Positions 1-16,560 of a stretch of DNA of 64,000 nucleotides are shown here, piece by piece. The notes under the pieces are model-generated. The model had not been told where the DNA came from and made no database searches. It worked only from the letters and a program-made list of their open reading frames with translations. The DNA comes from an uncultured bacterium. GTDB lineage: Bacteria; Patescibacteriota; Minisyncoccia; Phycocordibacterales; GWA1-40-21. A program made the translations under genes and the position numbers. The stretch is from assembly GCA_963798465.1 (NCBI GenBank), contig CAWCTC010000001.1, forward strand, positions 656,465 to 720,464, given 5' to 3'. How positions within the stretch are numbered: the stretch's first letter is position 1; every line of letters starts with the position of its first letter.

Positions 1-280
1 GATAGAATACATGCAAGACAAAGTCGGCAAAACTTTTGACGGCATAATCACCGGCGTCACCGAATGGGGCATCTATGCGGAAGATTCAGAAACTAAGGCT
101 GAAGGAATGATTAAACTTTCTTCTCTCGGCGATGATTTCTACAAGCTCGACAAAAAAACTTATTCCATCGTTGGAGAAAAAACAAAAAAAGTTTACTCGC
201 TCGGACAAAAAGTAAAAATCAAACTAGTTTCAGCTGATTTGGATAGAAGGCAAATGGATTATGAGATTATGAAAGAGTGA
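1..280 (+). CDS. rnr: Ribonuclease R, C-terminal S1 RNA-binding domain (5' part lies outside window)
   Basis: The ORF is open to the window edge. 'VGKTFDGIITGVTEWGIYAE..EGMIKLSSLGDDFY..LGQKVKIKLVSADLDRRQMDYEI' has the layout of the RNase R/VacB C-terminal S1 domain. Confidence 0.7.
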   Translation, partial: IEYMQDKVGKTFDGIITGVTEWGIYAEDSETKAEGMIKLSSLGDDFYKLDKKTYSIVGEKTKKVYSLGQKVKIKLVSADLDRRQMDYEIMKE

Positions 281-332
281 GAACTGTTGGCCGTGTGGTA
301 CGAAGTTGGAACTATTTTGTTAGTTAAAAATA

Positions 333-875
333 TCAAGCCTTTATTAATTCATCCTTGACTCTATCAAGGAGAATTTCAAAAAATCTTTCTTCATCTTCGG
401 ACCAAGAATATAGTGGTTGCACTCCTGTTATAAATGACGTCTGAGGTCTCCAATCTTTATACTTTAAAGGCACAGGATACCGAGTCCAATATTCACCAGC
501 ATTTGTTAATTTTTCTAAAAAATTTTTTTCTTCTAATGAAATCGCCACATCTGATTCAATGAATAGTTGATCTAAATCATGGCTTTTTAATTTAAATTTT
601 GCATCAGAAGTATTAACAATTAACTTTCCTCTCTTTATATACAATCCTTTTACATAATTTTCTAATGCCATTACTCTTAGATACATCATTGGTTCAAAAA
701 TCTCATAGTTTGCTGGGACTATACCTTCTTTTTTAATTTTAATTTCATCTCTGGCGCCATTCCATAAATAATACAATTCATTTGATGCAAGTAATAGTTG
801 ATCACCCTTATGCTTCCATCTTGAGTATTCATTTGCTGATTTAATATAATCTGATTTTCTTTCCTTATCATTCAT
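333..875 (-). CDS. Hypothetical protein, helical; possible HEPN-like fold ('MALENYVKG', 'KSHDLDQLF')
   Basis: 180-aa ORF, last gene of the smc-downstream string. The motif resemblance is weak and comes from reading the sequence only. Confidence 0.45.
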   Translation of the reverse strand: MNDKERKSDYIKSANEYSRWKHKGDQLLLASNELYYLWNGARDEIKIKKEGIVPANYEIFEPMMYLRVMALENYVKGLYIKRGKLIVNTSDAKFKLKSHDLDQLFIESDVAISLEEKNFLEKLTNAGEYWTRYPVPLKYKDWRPQTSFITGVQPLYSWSEDEERFFEILLDRVKDELIKA

Positions 876-915
876 AGCGATTATTAATTAGTGAATAACC
901 TATAATTCTTTTAAT

Positions 916-1419
916 TTATTTTCCTATAATAAAATTGTGCTTCTTTGCTATATCAATAAAATAATCAACATGTTCAAAACCACAAATCATTAAAACCTCT
1001 TTACTTAGTCCATTTTGGAGCCAAATCTGATCTAACCAATATTTTTCGCGTTTTCGATCTGATTCCGCTGCAATATAATTTATTTTATCTTCCTGATCTT
1101 TATTTATTGGAGGAAATGGTATTAAAAGTTCCTTAGCAATTTGAGCTCTTTGCTTAACACCTATTCTACTCCGTTCAGCTATTCCCGGATCACAAAGTAA
1201 ATATTGCACTCCCAATTCAAATATAATTTTTCCTACATGAGTAGAATTTATATTTTGGTATGATAACGCATCCTCGCTAGATTCTTCTGCAATTAATGTA
1301 ATCTTTTTTACTTTACAGATATTTTTTACCTGTTCAAGAAATTGAATAACTTTTTTTAGATCATTATTCGGATTTGGAAGTTGAACTTGAAAATGATCGA
1401 CACCTAAGACATAAATCAT
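916..1419 (-). CDS. Hypothetical protein with GxxH...E...GxxH pattern (TraB/PrgY/Tiki-superfamily-like?)
   Basis: 167-aa ORF with 'VLGVDHF', 'LIAEES' and 'ICGFEHV', spaced like the duplicated GxxH/E motifs of the Tiki/TraB superfamily. No homology search was possible. Confidence 0.45.
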   Translation of the reverse strand: MIYVLGVDHFQVQLPNPNNDLKKVIQFLEQVKNICKVKKITLIAEESSEDALSYQNINSTHVGKIIFELGVQYLLCDPGIAERSRIGVKQRAQIAKELLIPFPPINKDQEDKINYIAAESDRKREKYWLDQIWLQNGLSKEVLMICGFEHVDYFIDIAKKHNFIIGK

Positions 1420-1424
1420 TGACT

Positions 1425-1943
1425 TTAGTTACTGAGATAATAGTTCTCGAGTTGTTTTAAGCGTGCTTCGGTTTCTAATCCTTGATGATTAGGTTCATTA
1501 CAAATTGTTGATGTTTGCCCATTGCTACTAATATCAGCACACCATGCCAACATAGTATCATCGGGGGCAGCTTTAAGATCTGTCTCAATTGCTCCACTAC
1601 TAACAATAGTTAATTCGTAATAGCAATTATTCAGTAATTGATTATAATGTGTCTGTCGAACGGTTACACTTCCATAAGGGTCAGTTCGTTTTTGTTGTGC
1701 ATCATCTACATTTGCCGCTGCGTTTGCAATATTTTTACAAGCAAGACCATTTTCGCTTGCAGTAGTTAAGTTCGCAGACACAGTTGGTTGAGAAATTGGC
1801 TGTGCGACGTAATCTTGTTTTGTACTAGTAGTTGTTGGCGTTGAATATGATTGAGGTGTAGAATTTTTTCCTAAAAAATATACACCAACTATTAACGCAG
1901 CAATAACTACAATTGCTAGTCCGATTTTTGTGTCTTTATCCAT
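1425..1943 (-). CDS. Membrane-anchored extracytoplasmic hypothetical protein
   Basis: 172-aa ORF with an N-terminal TM helix (IGLAIVVIAALIVGVYFLG), a Thr/Ser/Pro linker and a Cys-containing globular part. It lies 5 nt upstream of the next gene. Confidence 0.5.
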   Translation of the reverse strand: MDKDTKIGLAIVVIAALIVGVYFLGKNSTPQSYSTPTTTSTKQDYVAQPISQPTVSANLTTASENGLACKNIANAAANVDDAQQKRTDPYGSVTVRQTHYNQLLNNCYYELTIVSSGAIETDLKAAPDDTMLAWCADISSNGQTSTICNEPNHQGLETEARLKQLENYYLSN

Positions 1944-1968
1944 AAATTAATATTATATACTTGTTAAT

Positions 1969-4264
1969 TTATTTCGCCACCTGCACCGCTTCTTCAAACT
2001 GAATAGAAAGCAATCTTGAAACGCCATCAGAGCCCATTGTTACTCCGTAAATAACGCCGGCACGAGACATCGTTTCCCTATTGTGAGTAATGAGGATGAG
2101 CTGGGAATATTTTGAAAGTTCGGAAATCATATCGCCGTATTTCTTGGAATTGGCTTCATCAAGAGCAGCATCCGTCTCATCAAGAATAATAAATGGTGGC
2201 GGATTCACCTGCGGAGATGGCAAAAAGAAGCGCGATGGAAGTAAAGCTCTTTCTCCGCCGGAGAGCATCATCAGTCCTTTTGTTTTTTTCTTGGCAAGAA
2301 ACTTCAATTTCCAATCCTTCTTCGGTTTCTTCTTCCTCGATTATTTCTTCACCTTCAGATTCGCCATGGCTGAAGTGAAATCTGTATCGGATTTTTTCCT
2401 CTTTTTTTCTTTCAGCAATAACAGAAAGCGAAGCAGAACCTCCGCCAAACATCGCTGAGAAGAATTGCTGGAATTCGAATTAATTTTTGCAACGCCGAGT
2501 TCGAATTCGGTTGCGAGTTTTTCATCAAGCTCTTTGATGAGATTTTTCAAAGATTACGGAAGAATTTATCAAATCGGTCAATTCTTTTTCAAGAAAAGTA
2601 TCGCGCTCCGTCGTTTCTTTGTATTCTTTCACAATTTCATCTCCTCCGGCAACTCCGGCATCTTCCAATCGGATTTTTATTTTTTCCATCACGCGTTTTT
2701 TGTCTTCCTGAATTTGTCTTGGTTCTTTTACAATTTGCTCGATTGAAAGTGCGATACCATCTGCATTTGTCGGCCAGAAATCCTTATAATGAAGCGCGGA
2801 AACGCCAACCAAAATCGAAGCTTCCTGAAGCTCTCGCTTGAATTCTTCTTCATCATGTCGCAATCTTGATTCCCTGCTTTCCAAACCATTTAATCTGCCG
2901 CGGATTTCATTTTGCTCAGCAACAATTCTGAACAATGATTTTTCCGCATCTCTGTTTGAATCTTTTTCTTTTTCAATATCATTTTTCAAAATATGAATAT
3001 TGCTCGGAAAGTTCTGTTTCAAGATTATTCGCGTCTTTCAGCTTGATTTCATAACCGGACTTTTCGATTTCCAGCTTTTTGATTTCGTTTTCCAAATCAT
3101 CGATTGCCTGCTTGTCTTCATTTTCTTTATTTCTTTCTATGAAATCTCTGAGGATTTTCTTGATTGAAGCAAAAATTTCTTTTACTTTTGAAAAATCATT
3201 TTCTGAAACGCCATCAATTTCCAAATCAATTTGCTTTGCGACATTTTCAATCTGCGACAAATCCACTGTCTTTTTTGACATCGCAGAGTTCGCTTCATTT
3301 TGTTTTTTTATCAATCTGGCAAGCGAAGAAATTTCTCCTTCGATTCTTCCGATGCTTCTCATCAGATTGATCTTTTAAATTGCGAACTTCTTTGAGTTTG
3401 CCTTCAACTTTTACAACTTCATCACTGCGAGAATCTTTTGATTCGGACTTCGCCAAAACTTCTTTCGCTTCAGCAAGTTCTTTTTCAAGTTTGTGCGAGC
3501 TTTCAATAAGCGGATTTTTTTCACTAGCGATGCTTTCTTTTTCAAATTTAATATATTCTTCTTCACGGCGAAAATAATCGTGATACATTTTTGTGAGATC
3601 TTCTTTCATCTCGACTGTTTTTTCGATTTTCTCGACAGCTTTTTTCAAAAATTTAATATGCGGAGCGATTTCTCTTCGCAGAGATTCGACTTGTTTTATA
3701 TTTTCTTCCGTTTTTTCGAGCTTGCGGATGCTTTCATCTTTTTTGTTCTGAAATATTTTTAGGCCGAGGGCATCTTCAATCATTTCCCTTCTCTCGCGGA
3801 TATTTGAATTCAAAATCTTGTCAGCTTCGCCCTGAGAAATTATCTGGTGGCCCGAAGCTCCGATATGTGCGCCGAAGAAAGAAGCTCAACGATATCTTTC
3901 AAACGGACAGAACTTCCGTTTATCAGATATTCGCTCGAAGAATCCCTGTTTACGACACGCTCGATTGCAACTTCATCAAAATCAATATTGAAAATTCTTT
4001 GAACATTATTGAAAGTCAATTTGACACGACGCGCGATTTGAACGAGCTGCATCTTTTCCGCCGTTAAAAATCAAATCTTCGGCTCTTTTTCCGCGCAATG
4101 ATTTGATGGATTGTTCACCCAAAACAAAACTAAACGCTTCGGCAACGTTTGATTTACCGGAACCATTCGGCCCGACAATAGCAGAAATCGGCACATTAAA
4201 ATCCAGCGTGGCTTTTTTTACCAAATGACTTGAATCCCGAAATTTCTATGCTCTTTAAATACAT
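1969..4264 (-). pseudogene. smc: SMC-family chromosome partition ATPase, broken by about 10 frame changes (true pseudogene or assembly indels)
   Basis: Collinear minus-strand fragments encode an N-head ([23 protein letters not shown] Walker A), long coiled-coil segments, 'FSAMFGGGSASL', and a C-head ('LSGGERAL/TSIALLFAIS/QVNPPPFIILDETDAALD') spread over alternating frames. Confidence 0.8.
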
Positions 4265-4330
4265 TTATACATGCTATTCTACCAAATTTTTTTAAAATTC
4301 GGTAGTGATTTTTTTGCCTGAAAATCAATA

Positions 4331-4360
4331 AAAAAACCTCCTGATTTAGGAGGCTTTTTC
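4331..4360 (-). terminator. Rho-independent terminator (CCTCCT/AGGAGG stem + U-run) overlapping stop of the 108-aa ORF
   Basis: Minus strand reads 'gcCTCCTaaatcAGGAGGttttttt'. Confidence 0.5.
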
Positions 4361-4672
4361 TTGAACATTTATTATCATACTATTAATAATTGATTCTATC
4401 TTTCCATCTTTATTATCGTAAAATTCATATTCAGACTGATCTGGTAATTTTTCACCAGACATCATAGCTATAAATGCGTTAGCCAAGAAATATTTATCAC
4501 GCTTTAAATTATTCTCATTCAAATATTCCATAAACTCTGGTCTCATAGTCGAGTCTAAATTGGGCAATAAATATTCAGCAATCTCAGACTTTAAACTATC
4601 AAAGTTTGTGAATTTTTCTGGCCTTTCTTGCTGTTCTTCCGATATTAAATTTAAATTTTCCATACTTTTCAT
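4346..4672 (-). CDS. Hypothetical acidic protein (108 aa)
   Basis: Intact ORF between rnc and smc with no recognisable motif. Confidence 0.45.
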   Translation of the reverse strand: MKSMENLNLISEEQQERPEKFTNFDSLKSEIAEYLLPNLDSTMRPEFMEYLNENNLKRDKYFLANAFIAMMSGEKLPDQSEYEFYDNKDGKIESIINSMIINVQEKAS

Positions 4673-4686
4673 AATTTTTATAAATA

Positions 4687-5007
4687 TTATTTGTGCGTTT
4701 CTGAAAACTTATAATCAAAATCCCTTATGAATTTTTCTATGTCTTTTTCTGGAGTATCAAATTTTTCAATTTCATCTTGCGGAGTGCTGCCGATAACTCT
4801 GTGCCACAAAATATAGTCCAGCGGATTATATCCTTTGTCCTCCAATTCTAAAATAAAATCTTTTGCAGCTTTTTGTCGTGCCATAAATTTATCCAAAGCA
4901 TGCGGAGCATTTCTGTCAACCAACAATAAAGCATTTATCTCGGAAAGAATTTCATTCTGTTCCGAAGTTAAATTTTCATATTCTTTTTTTCCTTGATAAC
5001 TTTCCAT
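4687..5007 (-). CDS. Hypothetical acidic protein (106 aa)
   Basis: Intact ORF 8 nt downstream of rnc with no recognisable motif. Confidence 0.45.
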   Translation of the reverse strand: MESYQGKKEYENLTSEQNEILSEINALLLVDRNAPHALDKFMARQKAAKDFILELEDKGYNPLDYILWHRVIGSTPQDEIEKFDTPEKDIEKFIRDFDYKFSETHK

Positions 5008-5015
5008 GAATATTT

Positions 5016-5717
5016 TTAATTTATTTCCCAGCCTTTGGCTTTCAGCGCATTTTTTGCCGCTTCCTGCTCGGCTTCCTGTTTTGATTTGCCTGTTCCTTCC
5101 GCGATTTTTTCTTTGCCTAGAAATACTCCGACTGTGAATTTTTTGTCATGATCCGGACCTTCTTCTTTCAAAGTTTTGTAAGCCGGCGTGACGCTTTCAT
5201 TTTCCTGCGCCTGTTCCTGAAATTTGCTTTTTGCATCAAGCCAAGTTTTTTCCTCGACTATTTTTTCGATAAGATTGAAAATGTATCTTGAAATGAAATA
5301 TTTTGCCATTTCATATCCTTGATCCAAGAATATTGCGCCAATCAAAGCTTCTATAGTATTTGCCAAAATAATCTGCCTGGCTCTTCCGGTATCTTTTGCT
5401 TCGCCTTTTGAAAGCAGAAGATAATCATTCATACCAATTTTTGAAGCGGCATCTGACATCGTGACGGCATTTACAAGTGCAGATCTGAAAGATGTCAGCT
5501 CTCCTTCATTACTGTCAGGATATTTTTCATATAAATGTTCAGTGACAATAAGTTCAAGAACCGCATCGCCCAAAAATTCTAATCTTTCATTGTGAACCAG
5601 TTCAGAATCCTTGTGCTCGTTCAAATAAGACCTATGGGTAAAAGCCTGTTTCAAAAGATTCTTGTCTTTAAAAGTTATTCCTATATTTTTTTCGAAACTT
5701 GAAAAATCTGGCTTCAT
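5016..5717 (-). CDS. rnc: Ribonuclease III
   Basis: Carries the RNase III signature 'NERLEFLGDAVLELIV' and a C-terminal dsRBD ('KKFTVGVFLGKEKIAEGTGKSKQEAEQEAAKNAL'). Confidence 0.92.
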   Translation of the reverse strand: MKPDFSSFEKNIGITFKDKNLLKQAFTHRSYLNEHKDSELVHNERLEFLGDAVLELIVTEHLYEKYPDSNEGELTSFRSALVNAVTMSDAASKIGMNDYLLLSKGEAKDTGRARQIILANTIEALIGAIFLDQGYEMAKYFISRYIFNLIEKIVEEKTWLDAKSKFQEQAQENESVTPAYKTLKEEGPDHDKKFTVGVFLGKEKIAEGTGKSKQEAEQEAAKNALKAKGWEIN

Positions 5718-5860
5718 TTACCCGAGGAAATTTTTGCCAATAAAAATTACTGTTTCGGCAAAACAGTGATATTCGTTATTTTTCTTGATTAAACCTGTTG
5801 TCATTATAAGTTGTTATGTAACAATTTTTAGAAACGTTGGCAAAAACTTTGACGGGTGAA
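5718..5860 (-). repeat. Family-1 intergenic hairpin element, copy A (abuts rnc ATG)
   Basis: The ends 'TTACCCGAGGAAATTTTTGCCAAT' and 'CGTTGGCAAAAACTTTGACGGGTGAA' form an imperfect inverted repeat. They are shared with the copies at 8886-9022 and 26458-26596. Confidence 0.75.
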
Positions 5861-5875
5861 CTTCTCGCTAAAATT

Positions 5876-6775
5876 TTATTGGTTATTTCTGCTGCTTATT
5901 ATTGTTATTGCTTTCGTGATGATTGGCAAGATGTCGTTGTAGAAATTTAAATTTTGAATATCTTGAAGCTTGAACCATTTTGCGTCATCAAGTCCTCCGC
6001 TGTCTCCGAGATGCAATTCCTTTCTGTCGGTTCGAGCAAGAAAATAAGTGACTTGTTTCCTAATCTTTCCTTCTTCAGGATGATTTGCAACATATTCATT
6101 TTTCAAAAGCTCTTCTTCAACTGTGATATCCAAACCGAGCTCGTCTTTTATTTCTCTCAGCACTCCGATTTTTGGATCTTCGCCTGGATTGATTTTACCT
6201 TTTGAAAGAGTCCATTTTCCAAAAACATCGTGAACGAAAGCAAAATAAATATTTCCGTCTTCAATACTATATATCACGGCTCCCGCAAGCTGTTTTATCG
6301 GCATCTTATCAAATGGAATATCTTTATGTTTTTTGGAAACTTCTTCTTTGCCCGGCTCTCCGAGCTCTTTGTAAATCGTTCCCAAAACTCCATTTATAAA
6401 ACCGCCGCTTTTTTCTCCGCTATAAGTTTTTGCAAGCTCAATAGCTTCGTTGATTGCAACTTTTGCCGGAACTTCTTTTCTATCAGAGAACAAAAGCTCA
6501 TAAAGCCCGATGCGCAAAATATTTCTGTCGGCAATCGAAATTTTGTCTATCGGCCAATCCGGCGCAGCTTTCACAATAATACTGTCCAAATCCGCTTTTT
6601 TGTCTATAACTCCTTTCAAAAGATTTTCTGAAAATGCTTTTTCGGAATTGCCTTCTCCAAACTCGGCATTATTTCTTTCAAGCGAGGCAAGAGCCTCTTC
6701 TCTCGAAGAATTGCGAAAATCCCACTCAAAGGCGGATTGAAATACTATTGATCTTGCAAGGTGCCTAGAAGACAT
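5876..6775 (-). CDS. nusB: NusB antitermination factor fused to a C-terminal Nudix hydrolase domain
   Basis: The N-terminal ~145 aa are NusB-like ('ADRNILRIGLYELLF..VPAKVAINEAIELAK..GFINGVL'). The C-terminal half carries a Nudix box, 'GKINPGEDPKIGVLREIKDELGL'. Confidence 0.8.
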   Translation of the reverse strand: MSSRHLARSIVFQSAFEWDFRNSSREEALASLERNNAEFGEGNSEKAFSENLLKGVIDKKADLDSIIVKAAPDWPIDKISIADRNILRIGLYELLFSDRKEVPAKVAINEAIELAKTYSGEKSGGFINGVLGTIYKELGEPGKEEVSKKHKDIPFDKMPIKQLAGAVIYSIEDGNIYFAFVHDVFGKWTLSKGKINPGEDPKIGVLREIKDELGLDITVEEELLKNEYVANHPEEGKIRKQVTYFLARTDRKELHLGDSGGLDDAKWFKLQDIQNLNFYNDILPIITKAITIISSRNNQ

Positions 6776-6879
6776 ATATTTTGCTTAGCTTTTTATGGCT
6801 TATTTGATTACTGAGATTATTCTATAATAAAAAAAGAAAAAAGAAAAGGCCTCGTGATAATATGCGCGAAGCCTTCTTT

Positions 6880-7290
6880 CTAACATATAATTGTTGATTT
6901 TTTCTTTAATAATTTTATCAACCTTCTTGTTTGCTTGTCATTACCTTCCAAACCCTCCAAAATTTTTTCCTTTCTTTCATCAGCACTTTTAAGATATTTT
7001 TTCACAGCAATAATAATCTGTGAATTAATATTAAAAGGTTCTGAAGAGTATGGTTGCTGAACGACTTTAAACTTATACATAAATGGATCCATAACAATAT
7101 GAACATCGTACCTCGATCTCGAATAGCATGAGTGCTCGTTTAAAGCCGGATATATATACAACTTCATTCCCCGACTTTTCAAAGCTTTGCACATTTCCAG
7201 CCACTCTTTTTTTACACTTTCTGACATTCCGCACAAAACAAGTTCAACCGCCATAGAATAACTATCTTTTGTAAAGATTTTTTTATTCAT
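6880..7290 (-). CDS. Hypothetical protein (136 aa) with strong SD
   Basis: Intact ORF preceded by 'AAAGGAGGtttttATG'. Confidence 0.55.
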   Translation of the reverse strand: MNKKIFTKDSYSMAVELVLCGMSESVKKEWLEMCKALKSRGMKLYIYPALNEHSCYSRSRYDVHIVMDPFMYKFKVVQQPYSSEPFNINSQIIIAVKKYLKSADERKEKILEGLEGNDKQTRRLIKLLKKKSTIIC

Positions 7291-7382
7291 AAAAACCTCC
7301 TTTTGTCCGATTGGACTATTCTTGTTTGGCTAACTTCCAAATACAAGGCTAGCACAAGAAAACATGCAGTCAAATAAAATAT

Positions 7383-7413
7383 AAAAGGGCGGTCGCTTCG
7401 CGACCGCCCTTTT
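7383..7413. terminator. GC-rich hairpin terminator (GGGCGGTCGC-TTC-GCGACCGCCC flanked by A/T runs)
   Basis: Perfect 10-bp palindromic arms directly after the rpmF stop. Same design as the hairpins at 16511 and 19698. Confidence 0.7.
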
Positions 7414-7418
7414 ATATT

Positions 7419-7685
7419 TTATTTTTTATCTTCCGTCTTTTTCTCAGCCTTTTTTGGTTTAGTTGCTTTTTCCGTCTTTGCTACTTTCGCAGTTTTGACT
7501 GGCTTCGGCTTCTTCTCCATATTTATTACAACTCTTCCTCTGTATTTTCCACAATTTGAACATGCTTGATGTCTCATAACTGGGCTGTTACAATCTGGGC
7601 ACTTTGTAAGTGCAATCCCTTTCAAAGCATGATGTGATCTCGTGCTTCCTCTCTGGGATCTATTATGTCTCATTCGGTTTACCAT
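7419..7685 (-). CDS. rpmF: 50S ribosomal protein L32 with Lys-rich C-terminal extension
   Basis: 'RMRHNRSQRGSTRSHHALK' plus a CxxC...CxxC zinc ribbon ('CPDCNSPVMRHQACSNCGKYRGR'), followed by a K/A/T/E-rich tail. Confidence 0.85.
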   Translation of the reverse strand: MVNRMRHNRSQRGSTRSHHALKGIALTKCPDCNSPVMRHQACSNCGKYRGRVVINMEKKPKPVKTAKVAKTEKATKPKKAEKKTEDKK

Positions 7686-7737
7686 AGTGAAAAAGAGTAT
7701 AGCGTATTTCTTTAAAAAAGAAAAGGCCCGGAATAAA

Positions 7738-8196
7738 TTATTCCGGGCCGTAACTTTTAATTATTTCTTGGAGAGTTTTGAACTCCTCGTCTGTTTTTTT
7801 AAACTCTCCAATTCTTAACATCTCGCCTATGAGCATTTTAAACTCCTTTTTTTGCTCAAAAGAAAGATTATTACTAATCTCAATAAGAGGCCTTACAAAA
7901 ATATCTCTTATGCTGTAAGGTACCTCTACAAAAATATAAAGTGACATCTTGTCATTCCTCGTATCAACACCGAATTCAATCGGCGACTCATCTTTATGAA
8001 GAACGATAAGTCCTTTTTTTTCCAATTCATTGGATACCCTATAAAAAATAATTTCCAACAAATTAGGAAACTTTTCATTCACTTCCACTTCAACAATCGG
8101 AAATTTATAATTTCCCGGAGTAGCATCCGCTACAACGGCATAAAAGCCGTTATGAAGATACTTCATACAAAAACAAGTGCATGACACTTTTACCAT
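7738..8196 (-). CDS. Hypothetical protein (152 aa) with strong SD
   Basis: Intact ORF preceded by 'AGAGGTGATcatccATG'. Confidence 0.55.
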   Translation of the reverse strand: MVKVSCTCFCMKYLHNGFYAVVADATPGNYKFPIVEVEVNEKFPNLLEIIFYRVSNELEKKGLIVLHKDESPIEFGVDTRNDKMSLYIFVEVPYSIRDIFVRPLIEISNNLSFEQKKEFKMLIGEMLRIGEFKKTDEEFKTLQEIIKSYGPE

Positions 8197-8264
8197 GGAT
8201 GATCACCTCTTTTTTCATATTTTAAACAACTCTTTTTTTGATTATACAATAATATTTTATATTG

Positions 8265-8867
8265 TCAAATAGTAAATTTCTTGCAAAAACTTCTTCTATG
8301 TTCGGCACTCAAACCATATTTTGCAATTAAATCACGATGTTTTTTGGTACCATAACCTTTATGAATCTCAAAACAATATTTTGGATATTTTTTGGCGAGT
8401 TTGCACATGAGCGCGTCTCTCCTAACTTTCGCAACAATTGAAGCAAAAGCAATCGCCCTTTCCTTCTCATCACCTTTTATTATCGTCTTTTGGTTTTTAA
8501 ATATTTTTGGAGCTTTGAGTCCGCCATCAAGCAACACCAAACATTCTTTCGGTTTTACTTTAAGTTTTTTCATTCCGCTTTCTATGCAATTTCTAATCGC
8601 TTTACTTAAACCAAGTTTATCAATTTGTTTCGCACTCTGAAAGCAAACAAAAAAATCCACAATTTTTTCTTTTTTTAATTTTTTTAATTTTTTGTCTATT
8701 TCTTCTCTTTTTTCCGGAGTAAGCTTTTTAGAATCTTTTATTTTCCCGAAATTTTTCCCGTCAAAATCTGCCGGCATTTTAAAAGCACCGATTGCAACCG
8801 GCCCAGCAAGCGGACCTCTTCCTACTTCATCGATTCCGATAATATATTTGATGACACTTTTTTTCAC
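8265..8867 (-). CDS. rnhB: Ribonuclease HII
   Basis: 'IGIDEVGRGPLAGPVAIGAF' and 'DSKKLTPEKRE' are typical RNase HII motifs. Confidence 0.9.
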   Translation of the reverse strand: MKKSVIKYIIGIDEVGRGPLAGPVAIGAFKMPADFDGKNFGKIKDSKKLTPEKREEIDKKLKKLKKEKIVDFFVCFQSAKQIDKLGLSKAIRNCIESGMKKLKVKPKECLVLLDGGLKAPKIFKNQKTIIKGDEKERAIAFASIVAKVRRDALMCKLAKKYPKYCFEIHKGYGTKKHRDLIAKYGLSAEHRRSFCKKFTI

Positions 8868-8885
8868 ATTAATATTATATATTAT

Positions 8886-9022
8886 TTACCCGAGAAAATT
8901 TTTACTGATGAAAATGTTATTGATAATATACCAACAATTTTAGTCTATCATTGTCATATTTTATTACCAAACTCTGTTAAATTACATTTTCAATAACATC
9001 AGTAAAAACTTTAACGGGTTAA
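8886..9022 (-). repeat. Family-1 intergenic hairpin element, copy B (18 nt upstream of rnhB ATG)
   Basis: The ends are 'TTACCCGAGAAAATTTTTACTGATGAAAATGTTATTG' and 'CAATAACATCAGTAAAAACTTTAACGGGTTAA'. The ACTGAT/ATCAGT pair covaries with GCTGAT/ATCAGC in copy C. Confidence 0.75.
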
Positions 9023-9026
9023 AAAC

Positions 9027-9064
9027 AAAAGGCGCAAGTTATTTTTTACTTTGCGCCTTTTTTG
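9027..9064 (-). terminator. Rho-independent terminator (GGCGCAA...TTGCGCC + U-run)
   Basis: Minus strand reads 'aaaaaGGCGCAAagtaaaaaataacTTGCGCCttttgttttt'. Confidence 0.55.
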
Positions 9065-9549
9065 TGATTGTTGTAATGAGCCACATGAACAGGATGCTTG
9101 AGAAAAAATTCTTTTCTTTTTATAGCAAACTCCTTTGCGCCTCCATTATAAATATAATGTTTAATGAGACGTTCATGGTCTCTATCTCTACCAAAAAACT
9201 TTGCGGGTCGCACTTATATTCCTCCATGGTCATGACCAAATTTACAATACATGTGCATGCCTGTACAACTTGCCTTCCATTATGACTTCTGGCATATTTC
9301 AAAATCAAAATCTTTTCTCTTTTACTTAAACACACTCCGCTGTATTTAAAATAGTGTTTAAACAGTCTCAATGGATGCAAGAATAAATCCATGTTCATTG
9401 CAATGATGCTCTTCCATTGTTGCACCACGATTAATTACACACAATAACGCAGTTAGAAAGTGCGTACTTAGGTCAGCTATAGTCGTAAGATGTTTTTTCT
9501 GAAAAAACAAAGAGCGGAAAAAACGTACTACATGTTTAAATGTAATCAT
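9064..9549 (-). pseudogene. Hypothetical gene (~160 aa) split over three frames; strong SD
   Basis: Fragments at 9358-9549 and 9120-9428, plus a third-frame tail ('..HERLIKHYIYNGGAKEFAIKRKEFFLKHPVHVAHYNNHKKGAK*'), run to the terminator. SD is 'TGGGGGTGGAtaaagtATG'. Confidence 0.4.
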
Positions 9550-9687
9550 ACTTTATCCACCCCCAAGGCAGAATTTTTTACAACAAATATAAAAGAACGA
9601 TATTCCTTATAATTTTACGACTGCGAATTATAGATGTCAATGAGTTTAATTATTTTATTTTTTGATATACTTAGCTTAACCAATTTT

Positions 9688-12600
9688 ATGGCAAAATTTA
9701 CCCATTTACATACGCATTCTCACTACTCTCTTCTAAACGCACTGCCTCAATTGAAGGAGCTTGTTAAAATGACGAAAGAACTCGGGATGTCATCTCTTGC
9801 TCTTACCGATGCAGGCAATATGTACGGCGCGATTGAGTTTTATCAGACATGCAAAAAAAATGATATCAAGCCAATCCTCGGCGTAGATTTTTATGTCGCA
9901 GCAAGAACTCGCCACGACAAGCAAGGAGGAATAGACAATCGCAGAGCAAGACTCGTTCTTCTCGCAAAAAATAATGCCGGTTATAAAAATCTCATCAAGC
10001 TCGTCACAGATTCATAACTTCGAAGGATTTTATTACAAGCCGAGAATCGACCGCGAACTTATGGAAAAATATTCCGACGGGCTCATCTGCATCATGCCGC
10101 ATTTTTCCGGAGAAATTTCTTATGCATTGAAAAATGGCGACACAGAAAAAGCAAAAGAAATTGTTGAATTGGTATAAAAAAGTTTATGGCGCGGAAAATT
10201 TCTTTTTGGAAATCACGCATCATCCGGAAATCGAAGGACAGATGGAGCTCAAAGAAAAAATAATAAAATTTGCAAAAGAAACAAAGACACCGACTTGTCG
10301 CCGCTCATGATGTTTATTATCTGAAACCTGAAGACAAAGCTGCACGCGACACTCTTGTCCAAGTAAATTCTCATTCCGATTTTTCAGACAGGGCAGATAG
10401 CGGAAGCACAGATGATTTTTCTCTTATTTCTCCGGAAAAAGCTGAAGAATATTTCAAAGACACTCCCGAAGCATTGGAAAATACTCAGAAAATTGCCGAG
10501 GCTGTGCAACATTGAAATAACGTTTCGGCCAAGCCGCTTGGAAATTTCCAAATTACATCGTTGAAAATGGAAATTCTTACGACGAAGAATTGCGAAGGCT
10601 TTCATACGAAGGATTGGAAAAAAGAGGATTGCCACATTCAAAAGAAGTTATAGACAGGCTCGAATATGAATTGAAAGTCATTCAAGATAAAGGCTATGCG
10701 CAATACTTTCTTGTCGTTTACCGATCTTCTCAAATTTTCAGAAGAAAATGAATATTTATACGAACATCAGAGGTTCCGTCGCAGGCTCTCTCGTCACTTA
10801 TGTCACAGGAATTACAAAAGTAAATCCGATTGAATACAAGCTTCCGTTTGAAAGATTTTTGAATCCTGAAAGGCCTTCCGCTCCCGATATCGATATGGAC
10901 TATGCCGACAACAGGCGCGATGAAGTCATCAATTATGCCAGAGAAAAATATGGAAAAGAAAATGTCGCGCAGATCGGAACTTTCGGAACAATGATGGCTC
11001 GCGGAGCTTGCAGAGATGTTGCGCGCGCAATGGGTTATCCTCTCGTTCTTGCAGACAAGATTGCAAAACTCGTGCCGATGGGTTCGCAAGGTTTTCCGAT
11101 GACGATCAAAAAAGCTCTGGCGGAAGTTGCTGAATTGAAAGAAATGTATAAAAATGACAAAGACACGAAAGCAATTATAGACATGGCGAAAAAAATAGAA
11201 GGTTGTGCACGACACATTTCCGTTCACGCAGCCGGAGTCGTCATTGCGCCTACTCCGCTCACAGATTACACTCCGCTTCAATATGATCCAAAAGGCGAAG
11301 GGAAAATCATCACTCAATATGATATGCACGCAGTCGGCGAAGATGGTGTCGGACTTTTGAAATTTGATTTTCTCGGAATTAAAAATCTTTCCATCCTTGC
11401 CGATGCGGTAAAACGCGTGAAAAAAATAGAAAATATAGATTTGGACATTGAAGAAATTCCGCTCGATGACAAACTCACTTTTGATCTTGCTCTCACGAGG
11501 AGAAACGACCGGGCTTTTCCAATTGAACGGCTCCGGCATGACAAAATATTTGAAAGATTTGAAACCGACGACTATCCACGATATCAACGCGATGGTCGCA
11601 CTTTACCGTCCAGGTCCGATTGAACTCATTCCGGAATATATCGAAAGAAAACACAATCAGAAAAAAATAAAATATTTCGATCCGAGAATGAAAGAATATC
11701 TCGATCTTTCTTACGGGCTTATCGTGTATCAAGATGACGTCATGCTGACGGCTATCAAGCTTGCCGGATATTCCTGGCTTGAAGCGGACAAACTCAGAAA
11801 AGCCATGGGAAAGAAAATCCCAGCGGAAATGGCAGGCGCAGAAAGATAAAATTCTGAAAGGTTTTATCGAACATGGACTGACAGATAAAAAAGCAGATAC
11901 GCTTTGGAAACTCATCGAGCCTTTCGCAGCTTACGGTTTCAATAAAGCTCACGCAGCAAGCTATGGAAGAGTTGCATATCAGACCGCTTACATGAAAGCA
12001 AACTTCCCTGCAATCTATATGTCCGCAGTTCTTACAGCAGACTCTGGCGATGTGGAAAAAATCGGCGAGTTCATCGCAGACTGTAGAAAAATGGGAATTC
12101 CTGTTTTGCCTCCAAGCGTAAACGAAAGCTTCAGCGACTTCACCGTTGTAAAAACTCCCGGAGCAGATGTTCATTCAGTCGGTGAAGATCGCGACAAGAT
12201 TCGCTTCGGACTTACAACAATAAAAAACTTCGGCGAAGAAATTTCAAAAGTTATAATTGAAGAAAGAAAGAAAAATGGAAAATTCACTTCCCTTTCAAAC
12301 TTCTTGGAAAGAATCATCGACCGAAATCTGACAAAAAGATCGCTTGAACCTCTCATAAAAACCGGCGCACTCGACGAATTCGGCGAAAGAGGCCAGATGC
12401 TTGCAAATGCTGAAAATCTTTTAAAATATAATAAAGAGATCGGCAAAAAAGATCAAAATCAAGATTCTCTTTTTGGAATGTTCGACGGCCCATCCGAAGA
12501 TGGAAAAACAAAAGAAGCTTTCACTCTCCTACCAGCACCGGAAGCCACGATGAAAGAAAAACTTTCCTGGGAAAAAGAATTGCTCGGACTTTATATTTCC

Positions 12601-12945
12601 GGACATCCGCTTGATAAATATAAAAGCATTTTGGAAAAACAAAAAATTACAATAAAAAGAATCAAAGGAGATACAGAAAATGTAAAAAGCATCGTTGACG
12701 GCGGACAGCCAATCGGCGGAATCATCGAAGAAGTCCGCGAAATAACGACCAAAAATAACGAGCTTATGGCTTTCATAAAAATTGCAGATTTGACCGGCTC
12801 AATCGACGCAGTAGTTTTTCCAAGGACTTATGCCGAAATGAAAAATGCAATCACGCCGGACAGATGTGTTGCAGTCATTGGAAAAGTTTCTGAAAGAAAT
12901 GGAGAAATAAGTTTGATTATAGATAAACTTAAAATTTTGGAATAA
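9688..12945 (+). pseudogene. dnaE: DNA polymerase III alpha subunit, about 9 frame changes between ~10,000 and ~11,850
   Basis: The PHP domain ('FTHLHTHSHYSLL'), 'EGFYYKPRID', 'RGSVAGSLVTYVTGIT', 'PDIDMDYA', 'GLLKFDFLGIKNL', 'ALYRPGP' and 'YGFNKAHAASYG' are collinear but spread over three frames. The last 1.1 kb is intact. Confidence 0.85.
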
Positions 12946-13071
12946 AGACTCGCTCGAATTCGCCTTTTAAAAACGCACATAAAAATCTGTTGATTTTTTG
13001 TTATGCTCGGCTCGACAGCCTGCGCAATGTTTTTAAAATGTGAATCCTCGCTCGTTGGTGAAAATACAAAA

Positions 13072-13539
13072 TCATTTGTCAACAAATCCTCCAATATATT
13101 TGGTTTCAAATACGCAAATATCATCTTTAAAAATCTTTTCTTCTCCTGAAAAATTATCAACGTCTCCAATAAGATTATTCGTATATTTAAAATTACCTTT
13201 TTCATACAATTTTGGTCCGCGGTATGGCATCTCAATAGTTGCGTTAGATAAAGATTCAACCAAAAAAGGGTAAATTTCTTTTACTTCTACATTTTTATGA
13301 ACAAATCCGTAATAAACCATCATCCAAATTGGTTTATTTTTTAAAAATAAAACTTCTCTGCCACCATAAGGTTCACCACCAAAATAGTTGTCGTGATATT
13401 TGTAATCACCATCTTCAAAAACTATTGTAGTAGAACCATCGGTCTGTTTTTGTTGAATAGATTTATCACCGGAAGCATAAGTCGCTCGGCTAGCTTTAAA
13501 AATAAATTCCTTGAGTTGTTCTTTGTCTAAATTATTCAC
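13072..13539 (-). CDS. Hypothetical protein, DUF5680-like (GTG start)
   Basis: 'ATYASG..DGS..FEDGDYKYHDNYFGGEPYGGREVLF..KPIWMMVYYG' resembles the DUF5680 pattern, recalled from memory rather than searched. Confidence 0.45.
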   Translation of the reverse strand: MNNLDKEQLKEFIFKASRATYASGDKSIQQKQTDGSTTIVFEDGDYKYHDNYFGGEPYGGREVLFLKNKPIWMMVYYGFVHKNVEVKEIYPFLVESLSNATIEMPYRGPKLYEKGNFKYTNNLIGDVDNFSGEEKIFKDDICVFETKYIGGFVDK

Positions 13540-13564
13540 GGCAATATTGTATCATATAATCAAT

Positions 13565-13593
13565 TTGACATCACAAACTCAATTGACTATTAT
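13565..13593 (+). promoter_or_regulatory. Sigma70-type promoter (TTGACA-17 nt-TATTAT) for the thrS leader
   Basis: Hexamers and spacing were read directly from the sequence. Confidence 0.55.
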
Positions 13594-13599
13594 AGACAT

Positions 13600-13730
13600 G
13601 TAGAGATTGGTGGCTACTAACCACATAAAAGCAATTTCTAGGTAAAGAGTTAAAAGCCGGGTGGAACCGCGAGTAGAATCGCCCCGACAAAACACGAGTA
13701 ATCGTTTTTTGTCGGGGCGATTTTGATTTT
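13600..13730 (+). promoter_or_regulatory. T-box riboswitch leader (Thr specifier ACU) with intrinsic terminator
   Basis: 'AGAGA' lies at the Stem I base and a hairpin loop 'CUACUAA' carries ACU. The T-box sequence is 'GCCGGGUGGAACCGCGAG', followed by the terminator 'AUCGCCCCGACAAAA...UUUUGUCGGGGCGAU' plus a U-run, all directly upstream of thrS. Confidence 0.8.
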
Positions 13731-13832
13731 TGAGCTACAAAAATCATGTCGAAAGAATTTTTTAAATACGAAGTATTTTAAAAATTTTTTGACTATTTTT
13801 TAAGAAAAATTTATTAGAATAATTATATAAAA

Positions 13833-15575
13833 ATGGAAAACGAAAAATTACACAGAATGAGACATTCACTTGCACACCTTCTCGGTGCTGCAGTCAAAGA
13901 ATTATATCCGGATGCAAAAATTGCTACAGGACCAGCAATTGAAAATGGTTTTTATTATGACTTTGATTTTTCCGCTCCAATCACAGATAAAGACCTCGGA
14001 AAGATTGAACAGAAAATGAGAGAACTCGTAAAAAAGATTAAATCTTTTGATAAAGCTGAAATTTCTAAAAAGGACGCAGAAAAACTTTTTGCCGGAAATC
14101 CTTACAAACTTGAGCTCATTGAAGAATATTCAAAAGAAGGAAAAACTCTCACAACTTACACTTCGGGAGATTTTACAGACCTTTGTGCCGGACCTCATGT
14201 TGAGTCTATGGATGAAATAAAAAATGTCGCATGGAAGCTTGAAAGAGTTGCCGGGGCTTACTGGAAAGGCAATGAAGATAACAAAATGCTCACAAGAATT
14301 TATGGTTTGGCTTTTGAAACAAAAGATGAACTTGATGCATATTTAAAAAGAATTGAGGAAGCAAAAGCCCGTGATCACAAAAAACTTGGAAAAGAGCTTG
14401 GGCTTTTTGTATTTTCAGATCTTGTTGGTCCAGGACTTCCACTTTACACATTCAAGGGCGCAATTGTCAGACGAGAAATTATAAATTACTCAAATGAATT
14501 GCAAAAAACAATCGGTTATCAAGAAGTTCATACTCCAAATATAAACAAGGGTGAATTATTCAAAGTTTCAGGTCATTATGAAAAATATCTTGGAAGTATG
14601 TTAAAGGTTTTTTCAAATTTTTCAAAAGAAGAATATTTCTTGAAACCTATGAATTGCCCACAGCACACGCAGATTTATGCTTCTGAAGGAAGAAGTTACA
14701 GAGATTTACCTATCAGAATTGCTGATTTTGCAAACCTTTACAGAGATGAAAAACCTGGAGAATTGAATGGACTTACAAGATTGAAGTGTTTTTGCCAAGA
14801 TGACGGTCACGCTTTCTGCAGAGAAGACCAGATAAAAGATGAATTCGTAAATGTTTTGGAAATAATCAAAAAAGCTCTTGCAACTTATAAAATGGAATAC
14901 ACCATCCGTCTTTCGCTTTGGGATCCAGCAAAACCGGAAAAATATTTGGGCGGAGCGGAAGTTTGGGACAAATCACAAAAAATACTTGAAGATATTCTTA
15001 TAGAAAATAAAATTGAATATGTAAAAGCTGTCGGCGAGGCTGCCATCTATGGACCAAAAATGGATATAGTTACAAAAGATTCTCTTGGAAGAGAATGGCA
15101 GATTTCTACGATACAACTAGACCTTATAATGCCTGAGAGATTTAAACTTACATACACAGATAAAGATGGGCAACAAAAAACTCCTATGATGATTCATAGA
15201 GCTATTATCGGAAGCCCGGAAAGATTTATGGGAATACTTATTGAACATTATTCTGGAAACTTCCCCCTTTGGCTCGCTCCAGTTCAAGTAAAAATAATTC
15301 CAATCAGAGAAAATCATAACGAGCACGCGGAAAAAATTGCAAAAGAATTAAAAACTCTAGATTTCAGAGTTGATTGCGATACAAAAGAAGGAAACATGGG
15401 AGGAAAAGTCCGTGATGCAAAAAATATGAAAATTCCTTACACAATAATTATCGGCGACAAAGATATCGAAGCAAAAAAGATTTCTGTCGAATCTCGCGAC
15501 AAAGGCCAGCTCGGACAAATGGATTTGAAAGATTTTATTGAAAAAATTGAGAAGGAAAGAAAAAATAGAGAGTAA
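13833..15575 (+). CDS. thrS: Threonine--tRNA ligase (no N-terminal TGS domain)
   Basis: Starts in the second additional/editing-type region ('HRMRHSLAHLLGAAV'). Class II core motifs are present ('FLKPMNCPQH', 'YRDE..G.L.GL.RL', 'HRAIIGSPERF'), as is an anticodon-binding C-terminus. Confidence 0.92.
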   Translation: MENEKLHRMRHSLAHLLGAAVKELYPDAKIATGPAIENGFYYDFDFSAPITDKDLGKIEQKMRELVKKIKSFDKAEISKKDAEKLFAGNPYKLELIEEYSKEGKTLTTYTSGDFTDLCAGPHVESMDEIKNVAWKLERVAGAYWKGNEDNKMLTRIYGLAFETKDELDAYLKRIEEAKARDHKKLGKELGLFVFSDLVGPGLPLYTFKGAIVRREIINYSNELQKTIGYQEVHTPNINKGELFKVSGHYEKYLGSMLKVFSNFSKEEYFLKPMNCPQHTQIYASEGRSYRDLPIRIADFANLYRDEKPGELNGLTRLKCFCQDDGHAFCREDQIKDEFVNVLEIIKKALATYKMEYTIRLSLWDPAKPEKYLGGAEVWDKSQKILEDILIENKIEYVKAVGEAAIYGPKMDIVTKDSLGREWQISTIQLDLIMPERFKLTYTDKDGQQKTPMMIHRAIIGSPERFMGILIEHYSGNFPLWLAPVQVKIIPIRENHNEHAEKIAKELKTLDFRVDCDTKEGNMGGKVRDAKNMKIPYTIIIGDKDIEAKKISVESRDKGQLGQMDLKDFIEKIEKERKNRE

Positions 15576-15580
15576 TTATT

Positions 15581-15616
15581 AAAAAAACCGCGCTGTAAAA
15601 GCGCGGTTTTTTTTTT
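15581..15616. terminator. Bidirectional terminator (ACCGCGC-TGTAAAA-GCGCGGT) between thrS and the 154-aa gene
   Basis: A/T runs flank both sides of the stem. Confidence 0.7.
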
Positions 15617-16079: not shown

Positions 16080-16188
16080 TTTCCACCCCCAATTTTTTAT
16101 TTTAAAAGCAACAAATCTAATCACAATGCTAGCATGAAAAAATAAAAAACAAAACCGCCTTTTTATGGACGGTTTTTGTTTAAAACAT

Positions 16189-16443
16189 TTAGAAATGGCT
16201 GTAGTTTGTTTTTAGATACCGCAAATAATCTTTTTTATAGATTAAAACCAGTATTATCTGCAATATCACAAAAAAAATTAACCATAAAGCCGCCGCTATC
16301 AGCAATATGATTGCCAATATAAACGGGGTCGTTTCTATGTGTAAAATTAACACACAAAAGGCAAGAAAGACGACTGAAATAATAAAACTGATAACTTTAA
16401 TCCACTCATTCAACGCCTCGAATTTCAAAAAAAGTTTGAACAT
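16189..16443 (-). CDS. Hypothetical small membrane protein (84 aa; strong SD)
   Basis: 'AAGGGAGGTGAtatatccATG' precedes the ORF, which has two or three TM helices. Confidence 0.55.
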   Translation of the reverse strand: MFKLFLKFEALNEWIKVISFIISVVFLAFCVLILHIETTPFILAIILLIAAALWLIFFVILQIILVLIYKKDYLRYLKTNYSHF

Positions 16444-16541: not shown

Positions 16542-16560
16542 AATTTTGCTTTTATCGTAG

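Follow-up and report, generated by a model that had tools for sequence, protein, structure and literature searches.

Strong Shine-Dalgarno motifs on eight small genes in a Paceibacteria clade whose 16S rRNA appears to have lost the anti-Shine-Dalgarno sequence

Shine-Dalgarno (SD) motifs are taken to exist for pairing with the anti-SD at the 3' end of 16S rRNA, and lineages that lose one are expected to lose the other (Amin 2018, PMC6107228). The 64,000-nucleotide stretch of an uncultured patescibacterial genome analyzed here (GCA_963798465.1, contig CAWCTC010000001.1, positions 656,465 to 720,464; hereafter the window) raises the question of what a handful of very strong SDs could be doing in a clade in which that pairing partner seems to be gone. 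A preliminary description of the window had divided its genes into a housekeeping majority without SDs and eight small genes of unrecognized function with strong ones, and had suggested that the eight might be horizontally acquired or phage-derived cassettes, or else a specially translated regulon.

We scored the duplex energy between the 20 nt upstream of each of 67 curated window starts and the canonical 16S tail (GAUCACCUCCUUU). Eight starts had energies of -10.2 to -18.8 kcal/mol, with 2-8 nt between motif and ATG, and these were exactly the eight genes that had been singled out (Table 1). The remaining 59, among them the starts of the housekeeping genes and of the glycan operon, scored -6.8 kcal/mol or weaker, leaving a clear energy gap between two discrete classes; the split described earlier is thus real, and SD strength in the window is discontinuous. 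For one member, 9064-9549, the SD was as described and the open reading frame (ORF) was not intact, having two frameshifts relative to an intact 152-aa homolog in sister strain L084 (L084:8638-9096), which keeps both promoter and SD. Sites of -10 kcal/mol or stronger numbered 53 on the window's two strands, and those in non-coding DNA comprised one tRNA arm and four terminator-type hairpins besides the eight SDs. By a hand estimate that excludes the eight, chance would place ~0.25 strong sites at gene starts (Poisson P ~1e-10). The 10-mer TGGGGGTGGA occurs twice in the window against 0.01 expected, both times at an SD position. Since GGAGGT showed no window-wide enrichment (13 vs 8.9 expected), SD use is confined to the eight-gene subset, ~12% of window genes. 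Arguments from motif composition (T mostly after GGAGG; central base A or G only) were dropped as circular, the sites having been chosen by their energy against the canonical tail.

Relatives were fetched with the ATPase encoded at 61918-63891, and are a valid sample of the clade; all were Patescibacteria metagenome-assembled genomes (MAGs), labeled Paceibacterota, Zambryski-, Taylor-, Yonath-, Nomura- or Campbellbacteria. The four 16S genes recovered from them, that of the sister lineage L167 included, all lacked CCUCC and had a tail of the type GGAAUUUUUCAAAU instead of the canonical one. In an Rfam alignment the sequence after helix 45 was GAAUAUUUCAAAU in L067 and GAGUAAUUCAAUU in L079; L167 (JGI 3300047675, full 16S) and L168 (ENA ERZ27249422, 3' third) had the tail GGAAUUUUUCAAAUCGAAC, both ending GGAAUUUUUCAAAUCGAACACG. 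CCUCC was found nowhere in the L167 16S, nor, in any of the four genomes, in the 16S trailers of ~250 nt, which run to a terminator and the tRNA that follows. A search for a relocated anti-SD in ~120 kb (window, L084, L167, L168, L002-L004) returned no CACCUCC-type sequence outside coding regions and SD antisense, and a search of the window for an adaptor RNA to the new tail found nothing within 3 mismatches of GTTCGATTTGAAAAATTCC. By a count made by eye, TTGAA-type complements upstream of starts were no commoner than chance. In a single-protein, unbootstrapped neighbor-joining (NJ) tree of the N-terminal 425 aa of the ATPase, L167 (88% identical) was sister to the window, L002, L003 and L004; L168 joined them in a larger clade that excluded L067 and L079. 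By parsimony (phylogenetic bracketing) we infer that the window genome's 16S, which is encoded outside the window, also lacks the anti-SD. In Parcubacteria as a whole, Tsurumaki 2022 (PMC9297842) could detect CCTCCT in just 48% of the 16S genes. Because the anti-SD has been lost from the clade's 16S, it is the SD class, and not the core genes, that is anomalous.

Both states occur on single contigs. The anti-SD-less 16S gene of L167 (3647-5183) is followed downstream by three small SD-led ORFs, and two more lie on the L168 contig (Table 1); the other called genes on these two contigs have no SD. This co-occurrence contradicts the generalization that anti-SD-less organisms are also without SDs (PMC6107228). 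The SD leaders of L167, L168 and the window pair with the real tails at -1.4 to -6 kcal/mol, compared with -10 to -19 kcal/mol for the canonical tail, and a new SD fitted to the new tail was rejected on these values. As a separate observation on the surroundings of these 16S genes, in L167 5183-7330, L168 521-1700, L067 352-920 and L079 604-1100 the gene next to 16S and its own terminator is not 23S: a small SD-led ORF for a membrane or secreted protein comes there, with a tRNA, and in L167 three partial tRNA 3'-end copies (att-like repeats) stand ahead of the next SD-led genes.

Comparison with a more distant locus provided evidence that the motif is maintained. L170, a Paceibacterota MAG (homolog P0126), has the gene order thrS-dnaE-(145 aa)-rnhB-(144 aa)-rpmF-(118 aa)-nusB-rnc-..-smc-rnr, as in the window. 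Its ORF 8001-8435 is the syntenic ortholog of 7738-8196, and since the two proteins are only 26% identical vs 68-95% for their neighbors, the orphans are evolving fast in conserved slots. The L170 ortholog has a promoter (TGATATAAT), a leader, and AAAAGGAGGTG 5 nt before its ATG (-15.7 kcal/mol). What the two start regions have in common is an extended -10, GAGGTG (AGGAGGTG before the ATG) and a spacing of 5-7 nt, their leaders being otherwise unalignable and of different lengths. Likewise, the ORFs L167:6738 and L168:1409 (~58% identical by our own count) have TTGACT, a hairpin, AAAAC and AGGAGGT in common, the rest of the leader differing. Next to thrS, the window (SD GGGGGTGG) and L170 (AGGAGGT) alike have an SD-led membrane protein gene, the proteins themselves not being detectably homologous, and canonical SDs at correct spacing are similarly present in L167, L168, L170 and L084. 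Among strains, the SD of the 7290 gene reads AAAGGAGG, AGGGAGG or AGGGGGG, and that of 16189-16443 is GGAGGTGG in L084. Judged from these alignments, the motif appears to be under selection and is conserved for at least one gene. The earlier suggestion of a possible specially translated regulon is strengthened, the SD element being conserved across deep divergence. The slots filled in L170 are empty in the more distant L099, L106 and L115.

Between close strains the SD-led genes vary in another way. Sister strain L084 (JGI Ga0395630_000030) covers window positions 1-18205 at 91-98% identity, and the two alleles of 15615-16079 have 41% amino acid identity and a nonsynonymous to synonymous rate ratio (dN/dS) of 0.48 between flanks that are ~97% identical. 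Window 9062-9546 and 15638-16080 were too divergent from L084 8641-9101 and 2128-2581 for blastn, their flanks, promoter and SD included, being 94-98% identical. For these two genes the pattern, as read from the aligned strains, is one of allele replacement or diversification. Across the same 18 kb, dS against L084 forms a strong mosaic, from 0 (7738-8196, 4346-4672) to 0.8 (rnc) in adjacent genes, and recombination may well be frequent. Even in comparison with L170, where ThrRS identity is only 68%, nusB-NUDIX and rnc reach 92-95%. A further strain-variable block lies next to smc (window 275-1950, L084 16201-18408), with three hypothetical SD-less genes in the window and, in L084, genes for a pilin-like (N_methyl) protein, a lipoprotein of 193 aa (SD-led) and a protein of 176 aa.

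The starts of the SD-less majority have features of their own. The window is ~35% GC and encodes rnc, rnhB, rpmF, thrS (13833-15575), pheST, tsf, rpsB, prfA, rpmE, rplY, gatB, obg, mltG, murB, secA, gyrB, dnaE and smc. In a clade sample of 540 ORFs (the window plus 80 related loci), only 20 had an SD at -10 kcal/mol or stronger, and there were 48 exact TATAAT hexamers beginning between -15 and -12 relative to the start codon, vs ~1 per position elsewhere. TATAAT, often as TGnTATAAT, ends 6-10 nt before the start of many operon-first genes, examples of this leaderless type being rnhB, prfA, rplY, rpe, rpiB, an HNH gene, secA and a VirD4-like gene, the last with the same promoter-to-ATG spacing in the window, L167 and L168; rpmF, with TATACT 10 nt before its ATG, would be near-leaderless. 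Operon-internal genes overlap or abut the preceding stop, and in the glycan operon starts overlap or fall 0-9 nt from the previous stop at A/T-rich junctions. Among 117 SD-less genes of the window clade, base content from -15 to -2 was 42-56% A and 4-14% G. Rough automatic classing of 64 starts put ~21 in the leaderless type and 15 in the coupled class, with 20 further SD-less leadered starts and 8 SD-led ones; some AATAAT leaderless calls inside the glycan operon are probably false. About 15-20 window genes have the leaderless arrangement. On this evidence the SD-less class is accounted for by predicted leaderless promoters, and the Paceibacteria clade is, by the same predictions, largely leaderless, of which we found no description in the literature searched. 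An alternative assignment of 61918-63891 (657 aa) as thrS was ruled out, its Pfam match being to a VirD4/TraG/DUF87-type ATPase.

Several smaller observations concern these SD-less starts. A ~30-nt element, CA(G/T)(C/T)AAAAATTT(T/C)CTCGGGTAAA, lies directly upstream of 5717 (rnc), 8867 (rnhB) and 26453 (pheS); at rnc and pheS it reaches the annotated ATG, and it may represent a shared promoter or operator, or the starts may be mis-set. The motif GACGTGATTTC(G/T)CAAAATCA, preceded by a GC-rich stretch, is found upstream of two unrelated genes, 30801 (tsf) and 51729 (a Wzy-TPR gene), which have the strongest, still weak, SD-like scores of the SD-less genes (about -5.5 and -6.7). An HNH endonuclease gene beside the window's only tRNA and an IS200-like (Y1 transposase) gene (29172-29745, 38184-38843) have TATAAT 6-7 nt before the ATG, the layout of textbook leaderless promoters.

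Database searches with the SD-led proteins identified little. None of the eight had a Pfam match, compared with 13 of 51 scanned SD-less genes without one (Fisher P ~9e-5, hand calculation); since those 13 also lack a match, orphan status is not exclusive to the SD genes. PHROGs and PADLOC gave no family match for any of the eight, and tblastn against 50,697 phage genomes, run with the two focal proteins only (7738-8196 and 6880-7290), gave none either. A word-indexed search of 5.8 billion proteins matched the two focal proteins to same-species copies only, and database homologs of 6880-7290 were confined to the same species group. An exhaustive phmmer search with 7738-8196 identified three distant homologs (27-40% identical), all beginning at the SD-proximal Met, and its whole family amounts to four cluster representatives among 1.84 billion proteins. 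All homologs of the SD genes were in Paceibacteria. The genes are small and without recognizable function, as had been described; they are lineage-restricted and are not conserved core genes. GC content was the same in SD and other genes (0.342 vs 0.343), and the SD genes had higher GC at third codon positions (GC3; 0.352 vs 0.289, P = 0.006), fitted the codon usage less well (P = 0.002) and were shorter (P = 0.001), so that a compositional difference between the classes is borne out for GC3 and codon usage, modestly, and not for overall GC. The proposal of a horizontal or phage origin fared poorly against the absence of phage (two proteins), PHROG and PADLOC matches, the equal GC and the conserved slots in L170.

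The unit of 7738-8196 is self-contained, and here the claim that such genes have their own promoter and terminator is upheld in full: TTGACA-16-TATAAT (8268-8241) fits 12 of 12 consensus positions and is followed by a leader of ~38 nt, the SD, the ORF and a terminator at 7749-7725; promoters were also present at 9064-9549 and 15615-16079. An AlphaFold2 (AF2) model of the 152-aa protein (predicted local distance difference test, pLDDT, 85; predicted template modeling score, pTM, 0.81) matched almost exclusively Nudix-fold chains at the top of a Foldseek search of the PDB (template modeling score, TM, 0.4-0.5; E ~3e-4), and the predicted structure thus suggests, weakly, a degenerate Nudix-fold protein. 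The Nudix box GX5EX7REUXEEXGU is not kept (no match to Pfam NUDIX; by inspection a degenerate ...NELEKKGL... remains), and G62 and L63 are invariant in the family alignment. In its leader (8197-8234, minus strand) an out-of-frame upstream ATG (8218, own count), absent from the L170 leader, would open a 20-codon upstream ORF overlapping the SD and main start. The leader of 15615-16079 is only ~13 nt, which places its SD at the predicted mRNA 5' end; the membrane-protein nature of this gene and of 16189-16443 was read by eye. The JGI gene calls P0001 and P0002 mis-set both focal starts, at 142 aa each, one beginning 10 codons too late (152 aa from the SD-led ATG) and the other 6 codons too early, inside the SD (136 aa when counted from the SD-led ATG), and standard gene callers thus struggle with the start-site regime of this clade.

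Table 1. Coordinates of the SD motifs, SD-led genes and other features in the window, and of SD-led ORFs on two related 16S contigs
Position	Strand	Feature	Details
6880-7290	-	SD-led gene, 136 aa	no known family; SD AAAGGAGG
7296-7303	-	SD AAAGGAGG	5 nt before ATG 7290; -13.0 kcal/mol
7419-7685	-	rpmF (bL32), SD-less	between two SD-led genes; Pfam Ribosomal_L32p; -0.3 kcal/mol
7725-8268	-	self-contained unit	promoter, leader, SD, 152-aa ORF 7738-8196, terminator
8202-8210	-	SD AGAGGTGAT	5 nt before ATG 8196; -16.6 kcal/mol
8265-8879	-	rnhB, SD-less	GTG start; TATAAT 8874-8879, 6 nt before GTG; RNase_HII Pfam on homologous JGI gene
9064-9640	-	SD-led gene, frameshifted in window	promoter TTGACA-17-TAAAAT 9640-9612; ATG 9549
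9556-9565	-	SD TGGGGGTGGA	6 nt before ATG 9549
15615-16126	-	SD-led membrane protein, 154 aa	promoter 16126-16099; SD TGGGGGTGGA
16082-16091	-	SD TGGGGGTGGA	2 nt before ATG of 15615-16079
16189-16461	-	SD-led small membrane protein, 84 aa	SD AAGGGAGGTGA
16451-16461	-	SD AAGGGAGGTGA	7 nt before ATG of 16189-16443; -18.8 kcal/mol
16500-16628	-	conserved intergenic element	just upstream of SD-led 16189-16443; TATAAG, 5' hairpin GUCCGC-CUCC-GCGGAC, terminator
22130-22543	+	two tandem SD-led 58-aa genes, 22144-22320 and 22367-22543	SDs AAAGGAGGT, ATAGGAGGA; no family matches
22130-22138	+	SD AAAGGAGGT	5 nt before ATG of 22144-22320
22355-22363	+	SD ATAGGAGGA	3 nt before ATG of 22367-22543
35874-36448	+	SD-led predicted lipoprotein, 185 aa	signal and lipobox ...MMAVGC read by eye; SD ACAGGAGGT
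35874-35882	+	SD ACAGGAGGT	8 nt before ATG of 35891-36448
51921-60957	+	ten-gene glycan operon, coupled class	no SD; Pfam run on first two genes only
61918-63906	-	VirD4/TraG-like ATPase, leaderless class	TGGTATAAT (hexamer 63901-63906), 9 nt before ATG 63891
L167: 5497		SD-led ORF	AAGGAGG-7-ATG
L167: 6738		SD-led ORF	AAGGAGGT-8-ATG
L167: 7178		SD-led ORF	AGAGGAGGT-4-ATG
L168: 830		SD-led ORF	GGGAGGGG-3-ATG
L168: 1409		SD-led ORF	AGGAGGT-9-ATG

What, then, reads the motif? The reading we favor, with a confidence somewhat short of even, is that the SD-like element is functional, is kept by selection, and is read by something other than the 16S tail; we prefer it because no other reading accommodates the conservation and the rRNA data together. 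Under this reading, the lineage's 16S tail would have no anti-SD, and nearly all genes would start without SD pairing: promoter-proximal genes would have no leader or almost none, their -10 box lying 6-10 nt ahead of the start codon, downstream genes would restart by coupling at overlapping or abutting stop-start junctions, and other leadered genes would rely on A-rich, G-poor, unstructured start regions. The eight SD genes would form a set apart, small, monocistronic and fast-evolving, each with its own sigma-70 promoter, short leader and terminator, in conserved slots between housekeeping genes, and coding for, among others, a putative degenerate Nudix-fold protein, a predicted lipoprotein and two predicted membrane proteins. 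A second RNA containing CCUCC might act as the reader, or else a protein, whether ribosome-bound or free, and the outcome would be a separate level of translational control or mRNA stability for an accessory gene set. A fuller version, which we consider doubtful, is that the clade deleted its anti-SD and yet kept the SD as a working signal on private, small, fast-evolving genes, recognized by a partner other than the 16S tail (a trans-acting CCUCC RNA, or a platform protein of the reduced ribosome of the Candidate Phyla Radiation, CPR), giving a second, orthogonal channel of start recognition and control evolved from the classical one.

One candidate for a trans-acting RNA is the CUCC-loop intergenic element at 16500-16628, which folds with z = -9.6. 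Against Rfam it gave no family at threshold, a permissive E-value returning only sub-threshold, terminator-driven matches. Further copies were located at ~40560-40660 (minus strand) in the window, at 1510-1720 and 10746-10935 in L084, at 260-449 in L083 and at ~16130-16320 (minus strand) in L170, and none was found in L167 or L168; a variant hairpin (UUCCCGC-CUCC-GCGGGAA) and a variable middle occur among them. In L084 and L083 it stands between rpmF and an SD gene, which is not so in the window, and in L170 it precedes rnr. C-rich-loop regulatory RNAs such as Staphylococcus RNAIII and RsaE pair with SD regions, and this element resembles them in displaying CUCC in the loop of a GC-clamped hairpin beside an SD-led gene and in recurring in relatives. 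We regard it as a candidate small RNA or mobile promoter/5'-hairpin module; a link to the SD genes is speculative, and the putative target pairing covers a 4-6-nt core.

A number of points weigh against a reader other than the 16S tail. In its consensus the motif matches a true SD exactly, and such a reader alone does not explain the match. Two of the four testable ortholog pairs lack the SD, with L170:6851 and L170:8935/L171:2561 looking leaderless; in L170 neither the counterpart of the 7290 gene nor that of the 9549 gene (29% identical) has an SD, so that start-region type can switch between orthologs. An in-frame upstream ATG in the L084 and L171 homologs of the 7290 gene could make the motif coding (MDRE(V/E)F). 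The L170 locus was read without its 16S, and the state of the window's 16S, which lies outside the window, depends on the unbootstrapped single-protein NJ tree; the genome may also contain, outside the window, a second small-subunit (SSU) rRNA gene or an anti-SD encoded in trans, and classical pairing would then suffice. Finally, atypical GC3 and codon usage (P = 0.006 and 0.002) and strain-variable or tRNA/att-like sites would fit turnover or import for some SD genes.

This last point leads to an alternative in which the SDs are relics on imported or young cassettes from an SD-using pool (other Patescibacteria, hosts or mobile elements), the SD itself being unused and translation proceeding by the A-rich, SD-independent route. 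The species restriction of the SD proteins, their own promoters and terminators, their higher GC3 and poorer codon fit, the variable or replaced alleles at 9064-9549, 15615-16079 and the L084 17145 region, the L167 SD genes adjoining a tRNA with three partial tRNA repeats, the SD-heavy state of some distant relatives (e.g., 15 of 20 genes in L143) and the loss of the SD in two ortholog pairs would all fit such an origin. We nevertheless consider it unlikely: a G-rich 7-9-mer outlasted the divergence of the surrounding leader in orthologs with 26% and ~58% protein identity, synteny of the slots extends to L170 (with deep conservation at the rnhB-rpmF slot), overall GC equals that of the genome, and no homologs occur outside the clade or in phage, plasmid-borne defence or PHROG libraries. 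In another alternative a canonical anti-SD would be hidden, whether as a CACCUCCU-type tail kept in this species, in a second 16S gene or in a separate 3' fragment, with a sub-population of ribosomes using classical pairing. The motif's exact likeness to a true SD and the SD-like spacing of 2-8 nt in the window agree with this, as do complementarity extending along the canonical tail (e.g., GGAGGTGAT, GAGGTGATCA), strain variants (AAAGGAGG, AGGGAGG, AGGGGGG) that swap A and G at a position facing U, and the precedent of two 16S types per genome in Alteromonas (PMC6107228). Nonetheless, all four recovered 16S genes lack CCUCC, the sister lineage's included, L167 and L168 have SD-led ORFs on the very contigs that carry such a 16S gene, no free CACCUCC occurs in ~120 kb of the clade, and the window has no complement of the new tail. 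CPR genomes usually have one rRNA operon, which also counts against a hidden copy, and overall we judge this explanation to be quite improbable.

It would also be conceivable that the G-rich motif has nothing to do with start recognition and is the initially transcribed sequence of promoters with a -10 box 5-8 nt upstream, a 5'-end stabilizer or codons of a longer N-terminus, its likeness to an SD being ancestral or coincidental. The predicted -10 box just upstream of the motif at 15615-16079, which would make the motif the mRNA 5' end, is what this account predicts, and by eye the layout is the same at 16189-16443, 22367-22543 and 35891-36448; in L084 and L171 the in-frame upstream ATG turns the motif into AGG-GAG codons of a conserved MDRE peptide. 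However, leaders of ~33-60 nt in 7738-8196, its L170 ortholog and L167:5497 put the motif far from the 5' end, spacing is kept to the ATG and not to the -10 box, and family alignments begin at the SD-proximal Met, which together make such a role very unlikely in our view.

The nearest analogue is found in Bacteroidia, where ribosomes are SD-blind and only those lacking bS21 read the strong SD of rpsU (Flavobacterium johnsoniae rpsU, prfB; PMC7797042, PMC9976891, PMC13000453, PMC10798248). Both systems show almost no SD use, A-rich starts and a few strong SDs for special regulation. In Bacteroidia, however, the anti-SD is present and sequestered by bS21/bS18/bS6, whereas CCUCC is absent from the 16S of the four relatives examined here; since the sequence itself is gone, that mechanism cannot apply. 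The genes differ as well, being rpsU and prfB there and small lineage-specific proteins here (the window contains neither rpsU nor prfB), and leaderless promoters are common here, unlike in Bacteroidia. Anti-SD-less bacteria (Lim 2012; Amin 2018, PMC6107228; Tsurumaki 2022, PMC9297842) share with this clade a tail without CCUCCU and the lack of genome-wide SD enrichment, but have been described as without recognizable SDs, in contrast to the discrete strong-SD subset seen here, some of it conserved between orthologs. Actinobacteria and Deinococcus (GeneMarkS-2 group C; PMC6028130, PMC3160421) similarly have a -10 box at a fixed short distance before operon-first starts and two start classes, but their leadered and operon-internal genes generally use SDs with an intact anti-SD, whereas here operon-internal genes are SD-less and SDs are found only on small, monocistronic, orphan-like genes. 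Within the literature searched, only Tsurumaki 2022 links CPR and the anti-SD, and we found neither a residual SD class nor leaderless dominance described for this CPR clade.

The frameshifts noted above for 9064-9549 have counterparts in essential genes of the window, with dnaE (9634-12945), smc (1951-4264), gyrB (19781-21869) and secA (45155-47786) split, as well as 33446-34823. Relative to an intact sister-strain gene, dnaE has nine single-base insertions, most outside homopolymers, and no deletions; smc has one extra A (A7 vs A6 in L084), as does a 458-aa coiled-coil gene (A7 vs A6 in a 99.9% identical Logan contig). The split genes are probably assembly errors (long-read or strain-mixture consensus), not pseudogenes.

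If the motif is functional, it would expose a new reader of a sequence that has been studied for 50 years, together with a compact, testable regulon in CPR bacteria. If it is a relic, it would instead provide a rare clock for the decay of unused SDs and a marker of gene flow into CPR genomes.

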